From the IMG/VR virus record IMGVR_UViG_3300031963_000086: a stretch of 20,000 bases of DNA. One strand, written 5' to 3'. The position numbers were made by a program, and so were the translations under genes. This DNA is from an uncultured virus (IMG/VR IMGVR_UViG_3300031963_000086). Its lineage: Duplodnaviria; Heunggongvirae; Uroviricota; Caudoviricetes. This document shows, piece after piece, positions 2,805 through 14,189 of this stretch (position 1 is its first letter; each line of letters opens with the position of its first letter). The notes below the pieces were generated by a model. That model saw only the letters and a program-made list of their open reading frames with translations, was not told the DNA's origin and did no database searches.

Positions 2805-2948
2805 TTATTCTATGGTCGCATTATAGAACGAATTGTACATTGGTCGCTTCTCTTTTATCTTTTCACAAGCCTCTTCGTAGGTATTGGCTTTTACCAAAAC
2901 CAAGTTGGTGGGGCTATCAACCCCACAACCTATTAAATAGTAGTTCAT
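2805..2948 (-). CDS. 47-aa hypothetical protein MNYYLIGCGVDSPTNLVLVKANTYEEACEKIKEKRPMYNSFYNATIE
   Basis: ATGA overlap with the GT4 stop. It contains a GC-rich hairpin (2904-2929) that could instead be a terminator. Confidence 0.5.
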   Translation of the reverse strand: MNYYLIGCGVDSPTNLVLVKANTYEEACEKIKEKRPMYNSFYNATIE

Positions 2949-4207
2949 AATTTGAGCAATCGTTTAATTGACAATTTCCATTGGTCGGCAATCTTATCCC
3001 AATTGTACTCCGCAAACTTATGCTCGTAATTTTTAATACTCACCTTACGCGTGGCACTATCTTTCCAAGCGTTTATCATTTGTTCGCAAACGCTTTTTGG
3101 GTGCAATACCAACCGCACATTCTCGGCATCTTCTATTTGAAAGTGAGGCACTAGGTCATTTACGATATAAACCAAATCGCCATTATCGGTTATCTCGGTC
3201 AAAGAGGTGTGGTTGCCACAAATAATTGGCAAACCTACGCTCATCGCTTCGGTGATGGTCAATCCCCACCCTTCGGCCGTGGTCGTAGACACGAAACAAT
3301 CCAAACAATTGTACACCTCATTCATCTCTTGAGTCGAATAGGAGTTGCTATTGTATTTGTCCTCTATCGGCAAAAACACATCCTTGCCAATTACCAATCC
3401 AAGTCGCTCACACGCTACATACACTTTAATGCCCGTTTTGTCGGAGTGATAACAATGCAAGTATAATCCAACTTTTGATGGTCGGTTGGGGGTTACGGGT
3501 TGGCTCTCAAACCATTGCTTAAATTCCGCAAACGCTAACAAGGTTGTACCGATGTCTTTGCGCGGTTGGTTCTTATTGATGTTTCCGAATACAAACATAT
3601 CTTGAGGGATGTCGTATTTGGCTCTCAATGATTGTTTATCAAACAATGGTTGAAACTCGTATCTATCCATTCCGTGCGGGATAATACCAATTTTCATTTT
3701 GCGGTTATTAACTTTTTGAAATGCTTTTTCCGCTTCCCTACGCCCATAATCGGTGTAAGTGAACACTTCATCCCATACATCCAAATCTTTGAAATATCGC
3801 GCAAAGGGTACGCTATCAATCGGGGTGTACATCAACATTTTGAACTCCTTTTGTTTTTGGAATTGCTTTTGTTGACGGACATGGCGTAAGATTGGCGACA
3901 TCGGCCCAAGTACGGGTACATCATTCATAGCCCACAATAGGTCGTAATCGCCCACTTGCAACATTTTTAACACACCATCGCGATAATAGTAATCCTCTTC
4001 GTTACGCGCAAACATACGCGGGTTAACGGCCATGATTTGCTCGTTATACACTTCGCTTTGGCGGTTTCCAAAATTCAAACACGCTACATCTACTTCTACG
4101 CCCACCCGCTTGAACCAAGGTGTCAATCTATCCATTACGTTGTGGGAAACAGTTCCGAAGCCCGTAGGACACATAAAGTCCATGTACGCTAATATCTTTT
4201 TTGTCAT
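2945..4207 (-). CDS. GT4 (GT-B fold) glycosyltransferase
   Basis: PTGFGTVS N-terminal loop, IIPHGMD, NKNQPRKD, and the GT4 E-x7-E motif AEGWGLTITEAMSVGLPII. Confidence 0.9.
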   Translation of the reverse strand: MTKKILAYMDFMCPTGFGTVSHNVMDRLTPWFKRVGVEVDVACLNFGNRQSEVYNEQIMAVNPRMFARNEEDYYYRDGVLKMLQVGDYDLLWAMNDVPVLGPMSPILRHVRQQKQFQKQKEFKMLMYTPIDSVPFARYFKDLDVWDEVFTYTDYGRREAEKAFQKVNNRKMKIGIIPHGMDRYEFQPLFDKQSLRAKYDIPQDMFVFGNINKNQPRKDIGTTLLAFAEFKQWFESQPVTPNRPSKVGLYLHCYHSDKTGIKVYVACERLGLVIGKDVFLPIEDKYNSNSYSTQEMNEVYNCLDCFVSTTTAEGWGLTITEAMSVGLPIICGNHTSLTEITDNGDLVYIVNDLVPHFQIEDAENVRLVLHPKSVCEQMINAWKDSATRKVSIKNYEHKFAEYNWDKIADQWKLSIKRLLKL

Positions 4208-4211
4208 ATGT

Positions 4212-5273
4212 CTATTGTAATATTGTATTGTAAATATTCTCTGCTACTGATTTCATCATCAAAGGAGGTACACTTCTTCCTAACCTTTCCCATTGTTGCG
4301 CATAATTCCCCGTCAATATGTAATCTTTGGGAAACGAGCATATCACTTTCAACTCATCAATCGTGAACCTATTTGTATCATCCGACTTCATTTTGCTGAT
4401 TTCCATGTCGGTTTTATCATCGTAAAAACCTTTCCGCTTTATTCGATAAACTCTTGTAGCACCTAATCCCCTTGTTAGTATTGTAAAAGAAACATCATCT
4501 AGTCCAAGCGTAGTTATTTGCCCCCATTTAGCAAACCCATCACTACATATCATTTTTTCAATTTCGCCTCCAAATGCCTTTCCCAAGGTATTAATTTCTT
4601 GATTGGGTTTCGGGAATGATATTTTCTTTTCTAGGTCATTCCTTACTCCAATAAATATTGTCCTTTCCCGCGATTGGGGAACATTGTAATTTTTGGCATT
4701 TAAAACCATAAAGCGAACATTGTAGCCACAATTTACAAGCGAGTGGTAAATGGTGCTATCTTGACTATCAAACATATCAAATTGGTCACTACCCAACAAC
4801 TTACTTGATGCCCCTTGGGTTAATCCCTTCACATTTTCAGCAACAAAAACTTTGGGTTGAATCTCTTTCAACAATCGTGCAAATTCAAAAAACAAGTCAT
4901 CTACCCTTTGCTCGGTGCTTGAGTATTTTTTCACTTGCCCCCACATTTTCTCTTTTTTACCCGCAGTTGAAAATGATGCGCATGGCGGTGAACCATCCAA
5001 TATATCCAACTCACCACGCTTTAATCCGATTTGGTTTAATATCATATCCCCCGTCAATTCACGAATGTCTTGTTTGAAAATATGAGTATCGGGATAGTTG
5101 GCTTGGTAGGTGTCTTGCGCTTCTTGTAAAAATTCATTAATCGCCAACACTTTGCCTCCCGCAAGTTTGTAACCCGTACTACTACCACCCGCCCCCGCGA
5201 ATAAACTAACGACATTGAATAACTCCTTTTGAGATTGTTCATGTACCAATCTCATATCGTAGTTCGTGTTCAT
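4212..5273 (-). CDS. C5 cytosine DNA methyltransferase homolog; predicted Cx-SAM-dependent DNA carboxymethyltransferase
   Basis: Motif I FAGAGG, IV GSPPCASFS, VI ENVKG, VIII PQSRERTIFIG and IX RFTIDELKVICSFP. Motif X reads GRSVPP instead of GNSV/GNAV. Family call is strong; the carboxymethyl activity is inferred. Confidence 0.9.
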   Translation of the reverse strand: MNTNYDMRLVHEQSQKELFNVVSLFAGAGGSSTGYKLAGGKVLAINEFLQEAQDTYQANYPDTHIFKQDIRELTGDMILNQIGLKRGELDILDGSPPCASFSTAGKKEKMWGQVKKYSSTEQRVDDLFFEFARLLKEIQPKVFVAENVKGLTQGASSKLLGSDQFDMFDSQDSTIYHSLVNCGYNVRFMVLNAKNYNVPQSRERTIFIGVRNDLEKKISFPKPNQEINTLGKAFGGEIEKMICSDGFAKWGQITTLGLDDVSFTILTRGLGATRVYRIKRKGFYDDKTDMEISKMKSDDTNRFTIDELKVICSFPKDYILTGNYAQQWERLGRSVPPLMMKSVAENIYNTILQ

Positions 5274-5518
5274 AATTCCGTTTGGATTTCTACTGAATCC
5301 GTGTGTATTCTTAAATAAAGAGATGTGCCGAACATTCCAAGGGTGTTGTTGTATTTCTTTTTTGTCAACTCGAATGCCTCCTTGTTTTCATAGGGCTTAT
5401 TGGTTGCATCTTTAACGATGCCAATACGCTTTGATAATTTCCTACGCTCGTTTAATAATTGAATAATTTGGTCATCAATTTCACTCAATTCGTTTCGCAA
5501 TATTTCTAAACTTTCCAT
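5270..5518 (-). CDS. aroQ: Chorismate mutase type II (AroQ)
   Basis: LEILRNELSEIDDQIIQLLNERRKLSKRIGIVK...IHTDSVEIQ. R8, R25, K36, S75 and Q79 match E. coli chorismate mutase R11, R28, K39, S84 and Q88. Confidence 0.85.
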   Translation of the reverse strand: MESLEILRNELSEIDDQIIQLLNERRKLSKRIGIVKDATNKPYENKEAFELTKKKYNNTLGMFGTSLYLRIHTDSVEIQTEL

Positions 5519-5519
5519 A

Positions 5520-6170
5520 TTATTTAACCGCTAAGTAACCAATGAAATTAAAAGATTGCCAAAAGGTCGTAACCTTTTCAAAACCCGCATCTTTGAGCAT
5601 CTTTAAAATCTCGACATTTGTATTTGGCTTCATGATTGAGCGCAAATCTTTTTCTTTTGAATAAATTGTCGATGGAGAAAAGTTATTCTCTTTATAATCG
5701 TAGTGACTGAATGAAAAAACCTCTTGAAACCACCCATGCTTTTGATAGATTTTTTCGCATAAAAACAATGCCCCGCCATCTACAAGCCCTTCATAAATGG
5801 TTTCCAAATAATTACTCCTTTCACTCTTTTTAAGAAATTGCATGGTGAAAATACTATACACTATACACGCATCATCTATATCCCAAAAATTTGTATTCAA
5901 ATCTTCGCTAAGAAAAGATATTGGTTCATCATTGTCCTTTGGTAGCAAGTTTATACTTAGGTCAATACCTACCTTGGAGTTTTCATAAGGTAATGACTTC
6001 AATAATTTGCCCGTAGAACAACCAAGGTCATAAATTGTGGTGTCTTCCACTACAAAATAAGAACTCATACTATGAATCATATTCCATAGAATATCGTAGT
6101 TAGGTATAGATTGGAGAATGTGTTGGTCGAAATCTTGAATTGTATCAAAACTGAATTTTTCGTTTGTCAT
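5520..6170 (-). CDS. cmoA: CmoA-like carboxy-S-adenosylmethionine synthase
   Basis: Colinear with E. coli CmoA as recalled: FSFD...FDQHILQSIPNY, YDLGCSTG, FTMQFLKKSER, IYEGLVDGGALFLCEK, AGFEKVTTFWQSFNFIGYLAVK. Confidence 0.85.
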   Translation of the reverse strand: MTNEKFSFDTIQDFDQHILQSIPNYDILWNMIHSMSSYFVVEDTTIYDLGCSTGKLLKSLPYENSKVGIDLSINLLPKDNDEPISFLSEDLNTNFWDIDDACIVYSIFTMQFLKKSERSNYLETIYEGLVDGGALFLCEKIYQKHGWFQEVFSFSHYDYKENNFSPSTIYSKEKDLRSIMKPNTNVEILKMLKDAGFEKVTTFWQSFNFIGYLAVK

Positions 6171-6190: not shown

Positions 6191-6490
6191 TTACAACATT
6201 TGGATTTTGGGTTTTGCTTCCGCGTTCTCTAGCGGAAACTTTTGGGCTTGAACTTCGCAAGTTTGAATGAACACCAACTTGCCATCGTTTTCCAACGCAA
6301 TCAACGCGCGGGTGCAATGTGTTGTGCAATGCTCGTAGACGGGTACAAAATCTCCCGTTAGTTGGTTTGGTATAATGTTAGCACCTACTTTATGGCACTT
6401 GCAAGGCTGACCATCCTTGAGTAACATTTTACCTCCTTTGATTGTGTTGTACTCTCCTATTGAGTATTTATGAATATATTCTAGTGACAT
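6191..6490 (-). CDS. Hypothetical Cys/His-containing protein; first gene of the cmoA transcript
   Basis: 99-aa ORF directly behind a promoter; contains CKCH and HCTTHC motifs. Confidence 0.65.
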   Translation of the reverse strand: MSLEYIHKYSIGEYNTIKGGKMLLKDGQPCKCHKVGANIIPNQLTGDFVPVYEHCTTHCTRALIALENDGKLVFIQTCEVQAQKFPLENAEAKPKIQML

Positions 6491-6495
6491 ATATG

Positions 6496-6525
6496 CAAAT
6501 ATAGATTATTTTCAAAAATAACAAA
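6496..6525 (-). promoter_or_regulatory. Bacteroidota promoter with perfect-arm palindromic operator (6506-6521)
   Basis: Minus strand TTTG-N18-TATATTTG; operator TTATTTT-CA-AAAATAA. Confidence 0.8.
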
Positions 6526-7242
6526 CTATTGCACCAAATAAATATCCCCATATTTATCCTCACCCCAATAATGAACCCAATCGGGGTATTGAGTAGGTAG
6601 CAATTCCGCAATCCTTGGTGTGTTCAAAGCACTTGCAATAGCAAGGGGCGCACTTTGGTTTCCCATAAACCTATTGCTTTTTGCAATGTATGTAAACCAA
6701 TCCTCCATCGTTTGTGGAACGACCAATTGACACATATCCTTTAGTGGGAATAAATCGTAATCGTGTTGGCTTCCAAGGAATATGGTTTTTTCGTGTTGTT
6801 GAATTTGCATCAAATAAGAATCGCGAATATGGTCGCTCATCGGGTTTTTGTATCTCCGATTAATGACAAGGGTGTCATTCCAATCACGAACTTCATTGTA
6901 AGTCATCCAAGCACCACTTACGGGTTCATCATTCGGGAAAAAGGTAAGCGACATTATTTCAGTCCAACACCTCCGATACAAATGCGGACTTGTTCTAAAC
7001 AAAGTCGTATTGTACTCGATAGGTTGACCTTCCCAAATTTCAAATCCTTCATTCCCCTTTTGTTGACGAATTATCGGCCTTAACTCCTTTCGGGTATTGT
7101 GAACACCATTCTCAAAAGGCTCTACAACTTCGGTAATGTAAATCTTTGACCTTTGCCCGTGGCGAACCCACAAATGGTTCGCCACATACATAGAGTGAAT
7201 CAAATCACCCAACTTGCCACTTACTAAAATGCTACTTGCCAT
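6526..7242 (-). CDS. GT9-like glycosyltransferase (heptosyltransferase-like fold)
   Basis: N-terminal SGKLGDLIHSM and C-terminal YIAKSNRFMGNQSAPLAIASALNTPRI, resembling the GT9 motif FIGNDSGPMHLAAALGTP. Start placed at MASS (7242) rather than 7293. Confidence 0.65.
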   Translation of the reverse strand: MASSILVSGKLGDLIHSMYVANHLWVRHGQRSKIYITEVVEPFENGVHNTRKELRPIIRQQKGNEGFEIWEGQPIEYNTTLFRTSPHLYRRCWTEIMSLTFFPNDEPVSGAWMTYNEVRDWNDTLVINRRYKNPMSDHIRDSYLMQIQQHEKTIFLGSQHDYDLFPLKDMCQLVVPQTMEDWFTYIAKSNRFMGNQSAPLAIASALNTPRIAELLPTQYPDWVHYWGEDKYGDIYLVQ

Positions 7243-7483
7243 ACATTTTACTATCGCCTTGCTTGTAAAGTTTTTGTTGCTCTCCTTTGGCAATGGCGTT
7301 CATCTCTTCGTCAATGGCTTGGATTAAGTCATTCCGTTGTTGGTTGGCAATGTTTGTGGTGCGCGTGGCCTTCGCAATATCGGCATCCGTTGCTTTGGGG
7401 TCGCGCTTTATATCCTCGGCCATCCAAATCTTGATGTTTACGATGGATAGTTGGTCAATCAAGTTTCCTATGGTCACTTTCAT
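7232..7483 (-). CDS. DUF4254/DUF6165-like helical protein
   Basis: IGNLIDQLSIVNIKIWMAEDIKRD...NQQRNDLIQAIDE resembles DUF4254, which is usually found beside GT9 genes. Confidence 0.6.
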   Translation of the reverse strand: MKVTIGNLIDQLSIVNIKIWMAEDIKRDPKATDADIAKATRTTNIANQQRNDLIQAIDEEMNAIAKGEQQKLYKQGDSKMYGK

Positions 7484-8715
7484 TTCAAGTCCTCCTTGGT
7501 GTAAATTCTAAATTGTGGGCAAGGAACGATGAACGCGCCTCCTTTTTCTAAATACTCGCGCTCTCGTTCCACGAACTCCGAAATAAAGTGCCAAGGCAAT
7601 ACCAACACATAGTCGGGTTGTGCCTCTCGCATCTCCTTTTCGCTTTTGATGACAATATTGCTTCCAATGGTGCGTAACCCCCACTTATCGGGATTGCGTT
7701 CCGCTATGGCTTCAATTTTGGTATTATCCAAATCAAAATATTGCAACAAAGTATTGCCTTTTGTACTAGCACCATATCCCCAAACGCTTTTTCCATCTCG
7801 GTTTGCTTTATCAATAAAATCCGTAGTTTTCATTCTTAACATAGCAACATTGTTGGCAAAATCATTCCACACGGGTAAGTTGTCATAGTGATGTTCGTTG
7901 TTGAATAACGCTTGGATATTCATCGCCCACACATCGCGTAATGGCGCACTACCAAAACTATTCATATCCGCGGTTTTCTTAACCGCATAAATACGAATTG
8001 ACCCACCATTCACATCATTCAACTCGGCATTTAAGACCTTCATGTTGGCGAGGTTCAAGATTCTTTGAACACTAGTCAAGTTGTGATAAGCCCAATGTTC
8101 GTGACAAATATTGTCGAACGCAAGTTGCTTCATCATAAGCGGGGTGTAAGAGAGTTGCAATACCCAAATACCATTTTCGTCAAGCACCTTTTCTACATCT
8201 TCGGCAAAAGTGAACGGGTCTTGCAAATCATAGAACATAGCAATGCTTGTAACCACATCCGCTTTTTTGGGGGCGTTCGCTTTTAACCACGCATCGTAAG
8301 TGAAATAATCTTGAACTATGCTATTTGCGTGATGCAATGCTTCCGCTATATACTTGTCTTCAATCGGGTCAATACCAACACGAAAAAACTTGCTCTCATC
8401 TACCCAAGATAAAAGAGTACCATCGTTACACGCGATGTCAAGCCACACATAGTTACTTCCCATCAATTTCTTATGGTCAAAAATGGAATCCACTACATCG
8501 CGTAGGGCTTCTCGCATAGATGCGTTTGTACCACTCTTGTACCAATATTTGCCCCACATTTCTTCTCCACTCGGTTGCTCGGTCAAAGTTGGGCAACCCA
8601 ACCTCTCATTCCAAACAAGGTCAAGTGAATACTTTTTTCGGGTCGCGTACTCCGCGGAACTATGCACAAAGTCGCTTGTGTACATACTCCCTAATTCTAT
8701 TAATTTATGGCTCAT
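7480..8715 (-). CDS. NDP-hexose C3-methyltransferase family (TcaB9/NovU/EryBIII-like)
   Basis: YWYKSG, LDIACNDGTLL, FDNICHEH, GGSIRIY, GYGASTKGNTLLQY, PDYVLVLPWHF...GGAFIVPCP. Confidence 0.88.
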   Translation of the reverse strand: MSHKLIELGSMYTSDFVHSSAEYATRKKYSLDLVWNERLGCPTLTEQPSGEEMWGKYWYKSGTNASMREALRDVVDSIFDHKKLMGSNYVWLDIACNDGTLLSWVDESKFFRVGIDPIEDKYIAEALHHANSIVQDYFTYDAWLKANAPKKADVVTSIAMFYDLQDPFTFAEDVEKVLDENGIWVLQLSYTPLMMKQLAFDNICHEHWAYHNLTSVQRILNLANMKVLNAELNDVNGGSIRIYAVKKTADMNSFGSAPLRDVWAMNIQALFNNEHHYDNLPVWNDFANNVAMLRMKTTDFIDKANRDGKSVWGYGASTKGNTLLQYFDLDNTKIEAIAERNPDKWGLRTIGSNIVIKSEKEMREAQPDYVLVLPWHFISEFVEREREYLEKGGAFIVPCPQFRIYTKEDLK

Positions 8716-9326
8716 TTCGTGTAAAAATCGTTAACCTCGTGTCGTCTAACCTTACGATAACCGAACAATGCAAGGTATTGCTCAATTTCGGGGTCGTTAA
8801 AATTATTCTCAATGCAAAACATTTTCACATTCCATTTTGGGATGTCAAAACCTTTCAACACATCCAACTCCGTGCCTTCGGTGTCAATTGAAATAAAGTC
8901 AATATGACTAACCCAATCAAAGTCCGCAATAATGCTATCCAAAGTCCTTTCGGGTACTTTTACGATATTCACTTGGGGATTTAAGAAAGCGTGGCTTTGC
9001 ATCAATCGTTGGTCAAGTTCCAATCCGCTAATAGCCGTTTGGTTTCCACCTTCTAGGGTTACTACTTTGAACTCCACCTCTTTGTTGTTGTATTGGCCGA
9101 CCGCGCAATGCACGGCATTGGCACGGGTTTGTTGTAACGATGGTATCATCGCGGGGTTCGCTTCTACGCAAATCGCCTTCCAACCATGTTGTTCAAAGTG
9201 ATAGGTGTTACTCATACCTATACCATCGGTTGCCCCAATGTCAATGCAAATACCCTTGTAGTCGGGTTCAAAGTGTTGGGCGATGAATACGTCTTCGCCA
9301 AATTGTGAATAGGAATGTATGCTCAT
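8712..9326 (-). CDS. FkbM family methyltransferase
   Basis: YSQFGED, IDIGATDG, GWKAICVEANP, IDFISIDTEGTELDVLKG. Confidence 0.9.
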   Translation of the reverse strand: MSIHSYSQFGEDVFIAQHFEPDYKGICIDIGATDGIGMSNTYHFEQHGWKAICVEANPAMIPSLQQTRANAVHCAVGQYNNKEVEFKVVTLEGGNQTAISGLELDQRLMQSHAFLNPQVNIVKVPERTLDSIIADFDWVSHIDFISIDTEGTELDVLKGFDIPKWNVKMFCIENNFNDPEIEQYLALFGYRKVRRHEVNDFYTK

Positions 9327-10240
9327 AGTGTCATTTTGTATATAAAGTCGTCAAATTTAGTTGTTGGTTGCCATCCAATTGTTTCTTTTGCTTTGGAGTA
9401 ATCCCCCCAAATGTTGTTTCTTTCCCCCAGTCGCACAAGTTGACTATCGGTTAAAACATATTTTTTCCAATCATATCCGTGCGGGGCAAATGCTTTTTCA
9501 AGCAAATCTTCTACCGAATAAGTAACCCCCGTAGCAAATATCAATTCGCTTGGCTCTCCTTGAACTTGGTCGTAAAACCCTTGTACAAAGTCGGGGGCAT
9601 ACCCCCAATCTCTTCGTGATGTTAATGCGCCTAATTTTAGCAATTCGCTTGTAGCCCCATTTCGGAGTTGCTTGACATAGTTGCATATTTTAGCGGGTAA
9701 GAAATGTAGCCCTCTACGCTCACACTCATGGTTGAATGATATAGCCGTGTAAAATTTGCCACCTTGCTCCCGCATATATCTCATCATCTTATCCACTTCG
9801 TTCTTTGCTTCGGCATAAGGAGTGTGGGGATTTCTCGGACTATTCTCGTTTAATTGTTGGTCTTTAATATTTCCAAATACTTCACTTGATGACGCTTGGA
9901 AAAACTTCCGATTAGTATAAAAACAAACCTCCATCAATTTGAAAACGGCCGAATGATTCACCACTTTCGTGTATTCGGGCAAACGCTCACTATCGGGAGA
10001 AAAAGTAACCCCCCCAAAGTTATAAACCTCGGTTGGTTGTTTGTTTATTACGAATTGCGCTATGGAATCCTTATTACTCAAATCAAATTTGTGTAACGTA
10101 AAATTCGGGTGAAACAAATTATCCACCCAACGCTTGTTGGATGCGTAAGTTCCGTGAACCATATACCCTTTTGATAGCAATAACTCACACATGAGTGAGC
10201 CATCCATACCACTTGCGCCTATTACTATTGCCGTTTTCAT
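9323..10240 (-). CDS. gmd: GDP-mannose 4,6-dehydratase-like protein
   Basis: GASGMDGS Rossmann motif, QASSSEVFG, PYAEAK (YxxxK), FNHECERRG, LGALTSRRDWGYAPDFV. Confidence 0.85.
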   Translation of the reverse strand: MKTAIVIGASGMDGSLMCELLLSKGYMVHGTYASNKRWVDNLFHPNFTLHKFDLSNKDSIAQFVINKQPTEVYNFGGVTFSPDSERLPEYTKVVNHSAVFKLMEVCFYTNRKFFQASSSEVFGNIKDQQLNENSPRNPHTPYAEAKNEVDKMMRYMREQGGKFYTAISFNHECERRGLHFLPAKICNYVKQLRNGATSELLKLGALTSRRDWGYAPDFVQGFYDQVQGEPSELIFATGVTYSVEDLLEKAFAPHGYDWKKYVLTDSQLVRLGERNNIWGDYSKAKETIGWQPTTKFDDFIYKMTL

Positions 10241-11093: not shown

Positions 11094-11476
11094 AAGTCCC
11101 ATGCGCTAATTGTTTTGGTGTGGTTGCTTTGGAAATGTCCGCAATTCAAACACTTGCCACCCGTTGTATTTAATCCATCCCCTACAAAGTGTCCGCATGG
11201 GGTATTTGCATTTGAATCAAGATTTACCGATGAAGGATAGCGATTCGCAATCACCGACCCAACTTTAGGCTTTTGTGTTTTAGTGAACACTCTACCAAAA
11301 GTCACATTGTCCTTAACAACAATATCCTTGTGTGTAAATTGCCAAATTTGGCCATTGTTTAGAATGATGGTGTACATAGTATCGGTTTCGTGTCCGTACT
11401 CGGTTACTAGCCATATTACGCCATCCCCTTGGGGTGTTGTGACATCAACTCGGTTATGTGGTTCGTGTATGTGCAT
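11090..11476 (-). CDS. Hypothetical phage protein with C-terminal Cys/His cluster
   Basis: TAATG-coupled; PCGHF...CLNCGH. Confidence 0.65.
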   Translation of the reverse strand: MHIHEPHNRVDVTTPQGDGVIWLVTEYGHETDTMYTIILNNGQIWQFTHKDIVVKDNVTFGRVFTKTQKPKVGSVIANRYPSSVNLDSNANTPCGHFVGDGLNTTGGKCLNCGHFQSNHTKTISAWDL

Positions 11477-12144
11477 TAGAATAATTTTTGTTGTGGGCTT
11501 GGTGGAATAAATAAATTTTTTGCATTATTACGAACCCCCGTATATTCGGTTGCTTTCACTTTTTCCACAGAAAAAGCAAACCTCCAAATACTTTTACAAT
11601 CTATTTCGTCTATGAGTTCGATTTTTCTCCAATGACATAATCCAAATAGACCAATCTTCTCAATTATTTCCTCTTTACTTGGATTGTGTGTTCCGTAATA
11701 GCAAGTTAAATGCGTTTGGGTTATTCCGTTAAGAATATTAACATATGGTTTGGGCATAGTAATAAACAAAAACCCCTTATCTATCAGTAAAAAAATGTCG
11801 GGGAAAAACCTATTTGGGAATCCGTATGGGTCTAAATCAATTATAGTGAATTTTTTTTTGTCACTAATCAACCTATGGTATTCTAAAAAACTATCGCCCG
11901 TTTTTAAGTGTTTTTTATCGTATGCGCTAACACACCCATAGGTTTCATACAATTTTGTTAGATTTCCTTGTCCCGAAAACAATTCAAGTATTTTAATATT
12001 ATTTTTATTTGTTTCATCAAAATTCAATAACACTCGTTTCACTTGCTTCGTTTTTTCGTTAGGATGATGCACTTCATTAGAATTTTCTAATTGTTTCTTT
12101 CTAACCACATCGTGTCTTAACGCTCTATATGTTTTCGGTGTCAT
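11476..12144 (-). CDS. SAM-dependent amino-methyltransferase-like protein (DLDPYG motif)
   Basis: ILELFSGQG (motif I), SAYDKK, GDS and FTIIDLDPYGFP (a Trm1/DPPY-like motif IV). Confidence 0.6.
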   Translation of the reverse strand: MTPKTYRALRHDVVRKKQLENSNEVHHPNEKTKQVKRVLLNFDETNKNNIKILELFSGQGNLTKLYETYGCVSAYDKKHLKTGDSFLEYHRLISDKKKFTIIDLDPYGFPNRFFPDIFLLIDKGFLFITMPKPYVNILNGITQTHLTCYYGTHNPSKEEIIEKIGLFGLCHWRKIELIDEIDCKSIWRFAFSVEKVKATEYTGVRNNAKNLFIPPSPQQKLF

Positions 12145-13359: not shown

Positions 13360-13566
13360 TTATAGAAGAGAAATACATATATATGCGGATAAAAGCGTAT
13401 AATATCCGACCAATATAGGAGTTACATATTTGGCCATATAAAACTCTTCATCACTTTCTAATGCCACTCTTTCAAATGTTATTTCAAACCATATTGTCCA
13501 AATTATATAGCCCAACAACAATACGGGTAAAGCGAAAGTGATAAATATTAGTCGGAGGTTTTTCAT
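13360..13566 (-). CDS. Small two-TM membrane protein
   Basis: ATGA overlap with the GT2 stop; two hydrophobic segments. Confidence 0.55.
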   Translation of the reverse strand: MKNLRLIFITFALPVLLLGYIIWTIWFEITFERVALESDEEFYMAKYVTPILVGYYTLLSAYICISLL

Positions 13567-14189
13567 CGGTTGTAAGGGGTCTTGAAAGTTTCTTGACTTG
13601 GCGCACCACCCCACTTGTCAATAAAGAAATTTCTATTCCTATCAAAGTTTTGGTTCAATGAGGGGTCACGCGCGATGGTTTGAGAATTTCTAAACACTTC
13701 GGGATTAAAGAAAGGTGAATTTTCACGCTTCAACCCTTGCAACCTCATTCGGTAGCAATAGTCATTGTCCTCAAAGTATGCGGGGAAAAATTGCTCATCA
13801 AATTTGCCTACACTTTCCCAAGTAGTCAATGGAATAACAAACAAACACCAAGTACCCAAGCCTACATAAAAATCGTTGGGATTGGCATCAATATGCTCTT
13901 CTATTTCATCGGCCGTTTTGCGCCAAATAACATCGTCATTCAATAACGCGACATGGGTATATCCTTTGGCAAACAAAGTTTTGCAAAGCAAGTTCCACGA
14001 ACCACTTACGCCAATGTTTTGTGGCATTGTCATAACTCTTTGGTTCGATGCGGTAAGGTTGATTGTTTGGTGTCCATTATCTACAATATAGACGTGACGA
14101 CCATACCAAGTTTCTTTGTAAATCTCCAATGCTTCTTGTAGTAAATCGGCCCTATTTATGGTTGGGATTCCAAGTGCTATCATTGCCAT
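13563..14189 (-). CDS. GT2 (GT-A fold) glycosyltransferase
   Basis: IPTINRADLL, YIVDNG, NIGVSGSWN, LLNDD (DxD-like), VGKFDEQFFPAYFEDNDYCYR. Confidence 0.88.
   Translation of the reverse strand: MAMIALGIPTINRADLLQEALEIYKETWYGRHVYIVDNGHQTINLTASNQRVMTMPQNIGVSGSWNLLCKTLFAKGYTHVALLNDDVIWRKTADEIEEHIDANPNDFYVGLGTWCLFVIPLTTWESVGKFDEQFFPAYFEDNDYCYRMRLQGLKRENSPFFNPEVFRNSQTIARDPSLNQNFDRNRNFFIDKWGGAPSQETFKTPYNR

Follow-up and report, generated by a model that had tools for sequence, protein, structure and literature searches.

A phage cassette predicted to carboxymethylate cytosines in DNA and to carry its own chorismate mutase

The 20,000 nt stretch of viral DNA analysed here (hereafter the window; IMG/VR record IMGVR_UViG_3300031963_000086, from an uncultured member of the Caudoviricetes) carries three coupled open reading frames (ORFs) on its minus strand, at 4212..6170, encoding homologues of CmoA, of an AroQ-class chorismate mutase (CM) and of a C5 DNA methyltransferase (MTase). 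To judge from their sequences and arrangement, the trio probably forms a self-contained phage module that carboxymethylates cytosines of the phage's own DNA, with the CM supplying prephenate. The core CmoA/CmoX pair is an already published system; the CM is an unpublished but recurrent accessory, proposed for precursor supply. In the proposed pathway, the CM would convert host chorismate to prephenate, CmoA would use prephenate and S-adenosylmethionine (SAM) to make carboxy-SAM (Cx-SAM), and the CmoX-type transferase would move its carboxymethyl group to C5 of cytosines in double-stranded DNA to yield 5-carboxymethylcytosine (5cxmC). The modified base would most likely shield the phage genome from host nucleases. 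The CM would be an optional component, in place of which some relatives have a whole fusion (DAHPS-CM) of CM and the synthase of DAHP (3-deoxy-D-arabinoheptulosonate 7-phosphate); such a fusion would open up the shikimate pathway at its entry as well.

The initial annotation of this DNA described three tightly coupled genes, and the ORFs lie exactly where it placed them. The cmoA stop codon ends at 5520 and the ATG of the CM gene begins at 5518, a gap of 1 nt, while the ATGA at 5270-5273 is common to the CM stop and the MTase start, a 4 nt overlap. The genes cmoA and cmoX are in one operon, 249 nt apart. Two absences noted at the same time also hold: no match to the CmoB family was found in the 26 window ORFs scanned (which include every ORF of at least 200 aa), and the sole tRNA in the window is a tRNA-Met with anticodon CAT, hence C34.

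The pairing of CmoA with a carboxymethyltransferase in a cyanophage to which the initial annotation referred is in print for Synechococcus phage S-B43 (Yang et al., Nat Commun 2025, PMC12783734). In that phage CmoA makes Cx-SAM, the C5-MTase homologue CmoX (structure 8YF3) forms 5cxmC at GC sites, and CmoY ligates glycine to 5cxmC (PMC12783734). Arg350 of the S-B43 enzyme (SpCmoX) replaces the Asn of motif X and contacts the carboxymethyl group; wild-type SpCmoX accepted Cx-SAM only, and an R350N variant accepted neither cofactor (PMC12783734). The same study defined 5,615 candidate CmoX sequences by the combination of SPPC and Arg, demonstrated that SpCmoX-modified DNA resists the restriction enzyme HhaI, and described 5cxmC as a handle for hypermodification (PMC12783734). 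No CmoY-type amide ligase was found within the 20 kb window, itself part of a 35.8 kb contig, which may leave 5cxmC as the final base in this phage.

The transferase of the window matches PF00145 (DNA_methylase) with an E-value of 2.6e-53. Its best match in the PDB is SpCmoX (8yf3_A, E 2.1e-69; 40% identity), far ahead of the next, M.HaeIII (E 2.5e-20). Residues F25, E47, F48, D69, S95-P96-P97-C98 and R333 align with F25, E47, F48, D69, the SPPC motif and R350 of SpCmoX, so that every Cx-SAM contact named by Yang et al. is kept. The motif X Asn is replaced by Arg, with R333 in 'ERLGRSVPP' aligned to R350 in 'ERVGRMVPP' of SpCmoX. The protein thus carries the published CmoX signature, SPPC together with Arg at the place of the motif X Asn, and is associated with a phage cmoA; its homology to SpCmoX predicts that it forms 5cxmC from Cx-SAM. 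The Gly-Arg signature was also present in 54 of 60 C-terminally complete MTase ORFs of related loci (redundant loci included), and the other six fell outside the search pattern. One related locus (L021:5676-10215) has a single cmoA followed by four consecutive CmoX-like genes, all with SPPC and Gly-Arg, and another (L023) has two; these sets may represent several target specificities fed by one source of Cx-SAM.

The CmoA homologue of the window is 37% identical to the biochemically verified CmoA of S-B43 (SpCmoA) over its full length (E 2e-47) and matches phrog_4752 at E 7e-53. E. coli CmoA (4iwn/4gek) is matched over the full length, by residues 11-216, at E ~1e-21. Its best matches among cultured phages are Synechococcus phages, including S-B43. 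Homology to enzymes with published biochemistry therefore predicts that it makes Cx-SAM, and the earlier suggestion that this product passes to the adjacent enzyme of the DNMT fold agrees, at the level of sequence, with the CmoX signature and with the likeness to SpCmoA.

The third protein matches PF01817 (CM_2) with E 3.5e-10 and 40.4 bits, above the cut-off of 27. A profile of eight phage CM homologues matches the CM of P. furiosus (PfuCM, 1ybz) over its full length (E 7e-17) and that of E. coli (1ecm) at E 8e-7. Eight residues (R8, D15, R25, G33, K36, H72, S75 and Q79) are invariant in all 17 phage CM homologues, which share about 35% identity. They include the catalytic set R8, R25, K36, S75 and Q79, which aligns with active-site residues of 1ecm and 1ybz and which we take to correspond to R11', R28, K39, S84 and Q88 of E. 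coli. In AroQ enzymes the Arg pair binds the carboxylates, and Lys and Gln act at the ether oxygen, together with the Ser. AroQ enzymes build their active site in an intertwined homodimer. A homodimer model of the window CM scored 0.79, against 0.00 for the best control, though with solved AroQ dimers on record this may reflect likeness only; at least 98% of contacts agreed between runs, and the predicted local distance difference test (pLDDT) value of the partner was at least 83. Of 30 proteins whose structures were solved as one-chain pairs, 20 attain the mark for this score, as does 1 of 23 with single-chain structures. The mutase step is thus predicted from the fold, the conserved catalytic residues and the gene-neighbourhood statistics given below. 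A tblastn search with this protein over 50,697 records of cultured phages gave no match at E 1e-3 or better, and the aligned CM homologues vary too much for a scan by sequence pattern.

When CM or CmoA served as a single-protein query, scans of viral contigs found no relatives, but a query built as an alignment of 31 CmoA homologues did, and gave 22 viral and 52 metagenomic loci (one of the metagenomic ones, L024, is the window's own contig). Collapsing these at 95% CmoA identity left 51 clusters, of which eight with less than 300 nt downstream of cmoA were set aside, leaving 43 informative ones. A C5-MTase homologue was in the locus in 40 of the 43. A survey of cmoA-aroQ-dcm neighbourhoods had been proposed with the initial annotation, and the trio was indeed found to co-occur in related phages: 14 of the 43 informative clusters have a CM domain, stand-alone or fused to DAHP synthase, within the operon. 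The order is cmoA-CM-cmoX in eight clusters (window included), cmoA-[DAHPS-CM fusion]-cmoX in three, cmoA-[DAHPS-CM fusion]-Asn-synthase-like-cmoX in two, and cmoA-cmoX-CM in one (L031, where the CM directly follows cmoX), so that 13 of the 14 have the CM between cmoA and cmoX. A quick CmoA tree of 42 rows, built without L064 and weak in many of its branches, requires at least 7 changes in the presence of CM, which suggests that this accessory was gained or lost repeatedly. No match to the CmoB family rose above the cut-off in five related viral records, all matches being below it. Immediately upstream of cmoA-cmoX, two of the loci (L009:2051-3755; L010:797-2501) have genes for an amino acid:DNA transferase (ADDT, PF18724) and for a P-loop kinase-like protein, a layout suggesting that one phage combines hypermodified thymidine with carboxymethylated cytosine.

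The unity of the trio is seen from a sister viral contig (L089; 72,652 bp, 86% complete), which is syntenic with the window on both flanks of the cassette. The two share the sugar C-methyltransferase, DUF4254, GT9-like and orf99 genes, a family 4 glycosyltransferase (GT4; 88% identity), the ParB-like gene and the polyvalent protein gene. Their DNA is about 85% identical up to the cmoA ATG, and the identity resumes at the GT4 ATG. The slot between (L089:2271-3504) holds an ORF of 137 aa without a known family and a glycosyltransferase of 292 aa that belongs to the TAGT (TET-associated) family (PF20691, E 7e-26). Neither cmoA nor cmoX is present at this locus of L089, and no C5-MTase occurs anywhere in the 86%-complete record. 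A search of L089 for TET/JBP gave no match, but its control was also silent. As exactly the cmoA-CM-cmoX block is replaced, the trio, CM included, is one discrete, exchangeable module (Table 1).

The stand-alone CM of the window and the phage fusions derive from the DAH7PS-CM lineage of Bacteroidota type. The closest cellular homologues of the phage DAHPS-CM proteins are about 40% identical, and some are named Bacteroidales or Amoebophilaceae; the lineage link rests on these named homologues and not on the Prevotella and Porphyromonas sequences themselves. Cellular homologues of this type have Q..RW at the positions of E. coli CM residues 48, 51 and 52, and the same His as H72. The phage CMs correspondingly have an aromatic residue at position 52 and an invariant His ahead of Ser and Gln, and the order of the fusion, DAHP synthase N-terminal and CM C-terminal, is found in five related phage clusters. 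The window CM differs in standing alone, in its length of 82 aa and in the loss of the equivalent of R51, and the phage fusions differ in being shorter (313-319 aa vs 345-370 aa in cells) and in lacking the α2-α3 loop extension of about 10 residues. The DAH7PS-CM enzymes of Prevotella nigrescens and Porphyromonas gingivalis are active, and their CM domains in isolation are likewise active, as dimers with kcat values of 2.0 and 1.0 per second (PMC8408635; PMC12202928). The first of these studies describes allosteric inhibition of Bacteroidota DAH7PS by prephenate bound to the CM domain, and ties the α2-α3 loop to interdomain communication in the Prevotella enzyme (PMC8408635), so the loop-less phage fusions may escape prephenate feedback.

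The phage fusion proteins fit DAHP synthase models (E 1e-38 to 1e-43) far better than KDO8P synthase models (~1e-7 to 1e-9), with all scores under the cut-offs. When 16 fusion proteins served as queries in a reciprocal scan, five viral contigs came up with a DAHPS-CM fusion, all five beside cmoA and/or cmoX, along with a sixth contig of different arrangement. Two of the loci (L086 and L088) are the two ends of one 32,214 bp viral contig. One end has cmoA and the start of DAHPS-CM and the opposite end the remainder of the operon, the split to be expected if a circular or circularly permuted genome were cut within the DAHPS-CM gene.

Several observations weigh against the proposed module. The window CmoA scores 106.1 bits (E 2.2e-30) against TIGR00740, the NCBIfam model of CmoA, and does not reach its curated cut-off of 193.3. 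Verified SpCmoA, used as a control, is likewise below it (115.6 bits), so the cut-off excludes the whole phage clade and gives no argument against function. The PF01817 match of the CM spans only positions 1-49 of the 80 in the profile. Three canonical AroQ residues are missing, with N45, A48 and F49 at what we take to be the places of E. coli D48, R51 and E52. In the E. coli enzyme D48 and E52 bind the hydroxyl group and R51 is a second-shell Arg. N45 and F49 are less alarming, because the cellular relatives with an aromatic residue at 'E52' belong to a catalytically active lineage. The R51 equivalent is kept in cellular relatives and in most fusions, and its loss, which in the aligned sequences is peculiar to the subgroup of the window CM, keeps a real doubt on CM activity. 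Lastly, two thirds of the related operons run without a CM, and the complete 214 kb genome of S-B43 has no PF01817 match, although a positive-control record was matched; in some hosts, therefore, the system can do without the CM.

The missing residues and the short Pfam match would be accounted for if the 82-aa AroQ-like protein were not a working mutase and served as a prephenate- or chorismate-binding or regulatory domain, or were a decaying remnant of a DAHPS-CM fusion. As a regulator it might, for example, pair with the CM domain of the host DAH7PS-CM and disturb feedback control, and the allosteric response to prephenate described above belongs to the very lineage that includes the phage CM. 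This explanation is nonetheless unlikely: invariance of the five pocket residues at about 35% overall identity points to selection on a catalytic pocket, the aromatic residue at 'E52' is shared with cellular members of a lineage in which CM activity has been measured, and the CM gene is tightly coupled to cmoA and cmoX and moves with them.

Viral chorismate mutase, asparagine synthase and DNMT1 are given as unrelated auxiliary genes in a rumen virome survey (PMC10465536). [quoted passage not shown] The position of the CM in the 14 CM-bearing clusters and the invariable proximity of the viral fusions to cmoA or cmoX make this very improbable, as does the window itself, whose scanned ORFs showed neither a prephenate dehydratase or dehydrogenase nor an aminotransferase.

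Two further explanations concern the product, and both have hardly any probability left. The NCBIfam and Pfam labels read only dcm/DNA_methylase and tRNA-related CmoA, and would allow an ordinary 5-methylcytosine MTase beside a CmoA that serves uridine 5-oxyacetic acid (cmo5U) in tRNA through a host CmoB. The Asn-to-Arg change in motif X is, however, that of SpCmoX, which took Cx-SAM alone and lost activity with both cofactors when the Asn was restored (PMC12783734), and the lack of a CmoB among the window ORFs scanned, that of one above the cut-off in five related viral records, and the C34 of the only tRNA also speak against a tRNA pathway. Alternatively, 5cxmC could be an intermediate, with its carboxymethyl handle decorated by the GT4 encoded 4 nt downstream in the same operon or by products of the other sugar genes around the cassette (GT9-like, GT2, GDP-mannose dehydratase and sugar methyltransferase), in line with the published description of 5cxmC as a base open to further modification. 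This idea is weakened by L089, which keeps the GT4 and the sugar genes with no cmoA or cmoX at the locus and no C5-MTase in the record, so the flanking sugar genes are independent of 5cxmC. No GT4 homologue was found near cmoX in the other 74 loci either.

The proposed phage module for making 5cxmC, with prephenate supplied from within, can be compared with further known systems. It has the same core enzymes as S-B43 CmoA-CmoX(-CmoY), with cmoA upstream of cmoX in one operon and no CmoB. In S-B43, however, an asparagine-synthetase-like ligase (CmoY) stands between cmoA and cmoX, where the window has the CM; S-B43 lacks a CM and the window lacks a ligase, and the host of S-B43 is cyanobacterial, whereas that of the window is probably a member of the Bacteroidota. 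The E. coli CmoA/CmoB pathway to cmo5U34 shares the CmoA chemistry, but there the acceptor is 5-hydroxyuridine in tRNA, modified by CmoB, in place of DNA cytosine modified by an enzyme of the C5-MTase fold, and prephenate comes from housekeeping metabolism and not from a dedicated gene. The engineered M.MpeI variant N374K shows that a basic residue in place of the motif X Asn lets the C5-MTase fold use Cx-SAM (described in PMC12783734); made in the laboratory, it works at CG sites, depends on E. coli's own CmoA and is not a natural phage operon.

The initial annotation had suggested that the CM part may be undescribed, and this stands. Neither chorismate, mutase nor AroQ occurs in the main text of Yang et al., and four of its supplements contain no chorismate, DAHP, mutase, PF01817 or prephenate (PMC12783734), yet the gene recurs in the same slot of related phages. 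A search of the open-access and bioRxiv literature found no paper linking a phage CM to the CmoA/CmoX pathway. The Discussion of Yang et al. flagged prephenate availability as needing study (PMC12783734), and the presence of a CM or a DAHPS-CM fusion in about a third of one large clade suggests an answer. The window has 761 GpC sites, or about 1,500 cytosines; if its transferase acts at GpC like SpCmoX, one prephenate would be needed per modified cytosine, about 1,500 in the window alone. Viral 'auxiliary' CM, asparagine synthase and DNMT genes would then be worth re-reading, as they may belong to one DNA-modification pathway and not to amino-acid metabolism. Adding the CM could also be of practical help where 5cxmC DNA is to be produced in heterologous hosts, and the loop-less phage DAHPS-CM proteins are natural variants for studies of allostery.

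A broader idea is that CM or loop-less DAHPS-CM is a mobile, feedback-free precursor module serving a wider set of undescribed prephenate-dependent DNA modifications; we regard it as speculative and rather doubtful. One viral contig (L087:64-5317; 9,320 bp) has, in order, genes for a uracil-DNA glycosylase (UDG)-like protein, orf123, a dCMP deaminase, a stand-alone CM (84 aa), a DAHP synthase, a U32 protein and a UDG/RNaseH-like protein (642 aa). The stand-alone DAHP synthase (236 aa) scores 308 bits against TIGR01361, above the cut-off, the peptidase-U32 protein (340 aa) has a weak partial Pfam match, and there is no cmoA in the 5.3 kb locus. Peptidase U32 is the family of the prephenate-dependent tRNA uridine hydroxylase TrhP. 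The locus may represent a second kind of prephenate-fed nucleic-acid modification, and its combination of genes could lead to 5-hydroxyuracil in phage DNA.

The host assignment, made at the outset as a Bacteroidota-type phage, is supported indirectly by the lineage of the CM and by expression signals. The motif TAnnTTTG, which we take to be the Bacteroidota-type promoter consensus, occurs 9 times in intergenic DNA against 2.1 expected (none of 2000 shuffles reached 9) and is not enriched across the window as a whole (28 vs 27.5 expected). Cores resembling Shine-Dalgarno (SD) sequences precede only 4 of 34 genes, and a scan of the window for sigma-70 promoters and terminators gave results at chance level. 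Searches with the replication protein gave only broad matches, to phages of Firmicutes and Flavobacterium, and a second window protein had no match. The sole cellular relative of the cmoA-cmoX clade found is in Telluribacter humicola (Bacteroidota), on a 990 kb contig (L076:4956-6733); its cmoA-like gene, at 41% identity, runs into the start of the gene for a C5-MTase homologue, and there is no CM.

The operon exceeds the three genes, since GT4 follows the MTase after 4 nt and orf99 ends 20 nt before cmoA; a candidate promoter for all five genes lies upstream of orf99 (Table 1). Sugar-modification genes surround the cassette, and the remaining neighbours are listed with them.

Table 1. Positions of the cassette and of neighbouring features in the window.
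Feature	Position	Strand	Description
cmoA-like ORF (P0001)	5520..6170	minus	216 aa, Cx-SAM synthase homologue
CM-like ORF (P0002)	5270..5518	minus	82 aa, AroQ-class chorismate mutase homologue, proposed prephenate supplier
cmoX-like ORF (P0003)	4212..5273	minus	353 aa, DNA cytosine C5-carboxymethyltransferase homologue
Swappable cassette	4208..6170	minus	cmoA start codon to just before GT4 start codon
GT4 glycosyltransferase	2945..4207	minus	starts 4 nt past MTase stop, same operon
orf99	6191..6490		99 aa
Candidate Bacteroidota-type promoter	6496..6520	minus	two TAnnTTTG boxes (6496-6503 and 6513-6520) upstream of orf99; proposed for orf99-cmoA-CM-cmoX-GT4
Sugar-modification genes	2945-4207, 6526-10240, 13563-14189	minus	GT4; GT9-like (255 aa, lead only); DUF4254; sugar C-methyltransferase (Methyltransf_14); FkbM methyltransferase; GDP-mannose 4,6-dehydratase; GT2 (weak TAGT match, E 0.0019)
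Polyvalent protein, C-terminal part	3-1361	minus	DUF5661, ART-PolyVal, weak GNAT match
ParB-like protein	1948-2715	minus	phrog_12305
222-aa ORF	11476-12144	minus	weak Trm1-like match around 'DLDPYG' (below cut-off in Pfam, E 0.0019, and in NCBIfam, E 0.0089)

Trm1 is the N2,N2-dimethylguanosine tRNA methyltransferase, and from its weak resemblance the 222-aa ORF may encode another nucleic-acid methyltransferase. Homologues of the ParB-like protein are also found near cmoA in five other loci (L046 and L050-L053), in agreement with the association with ParBc that Yang et al. describe (PMC12783734).

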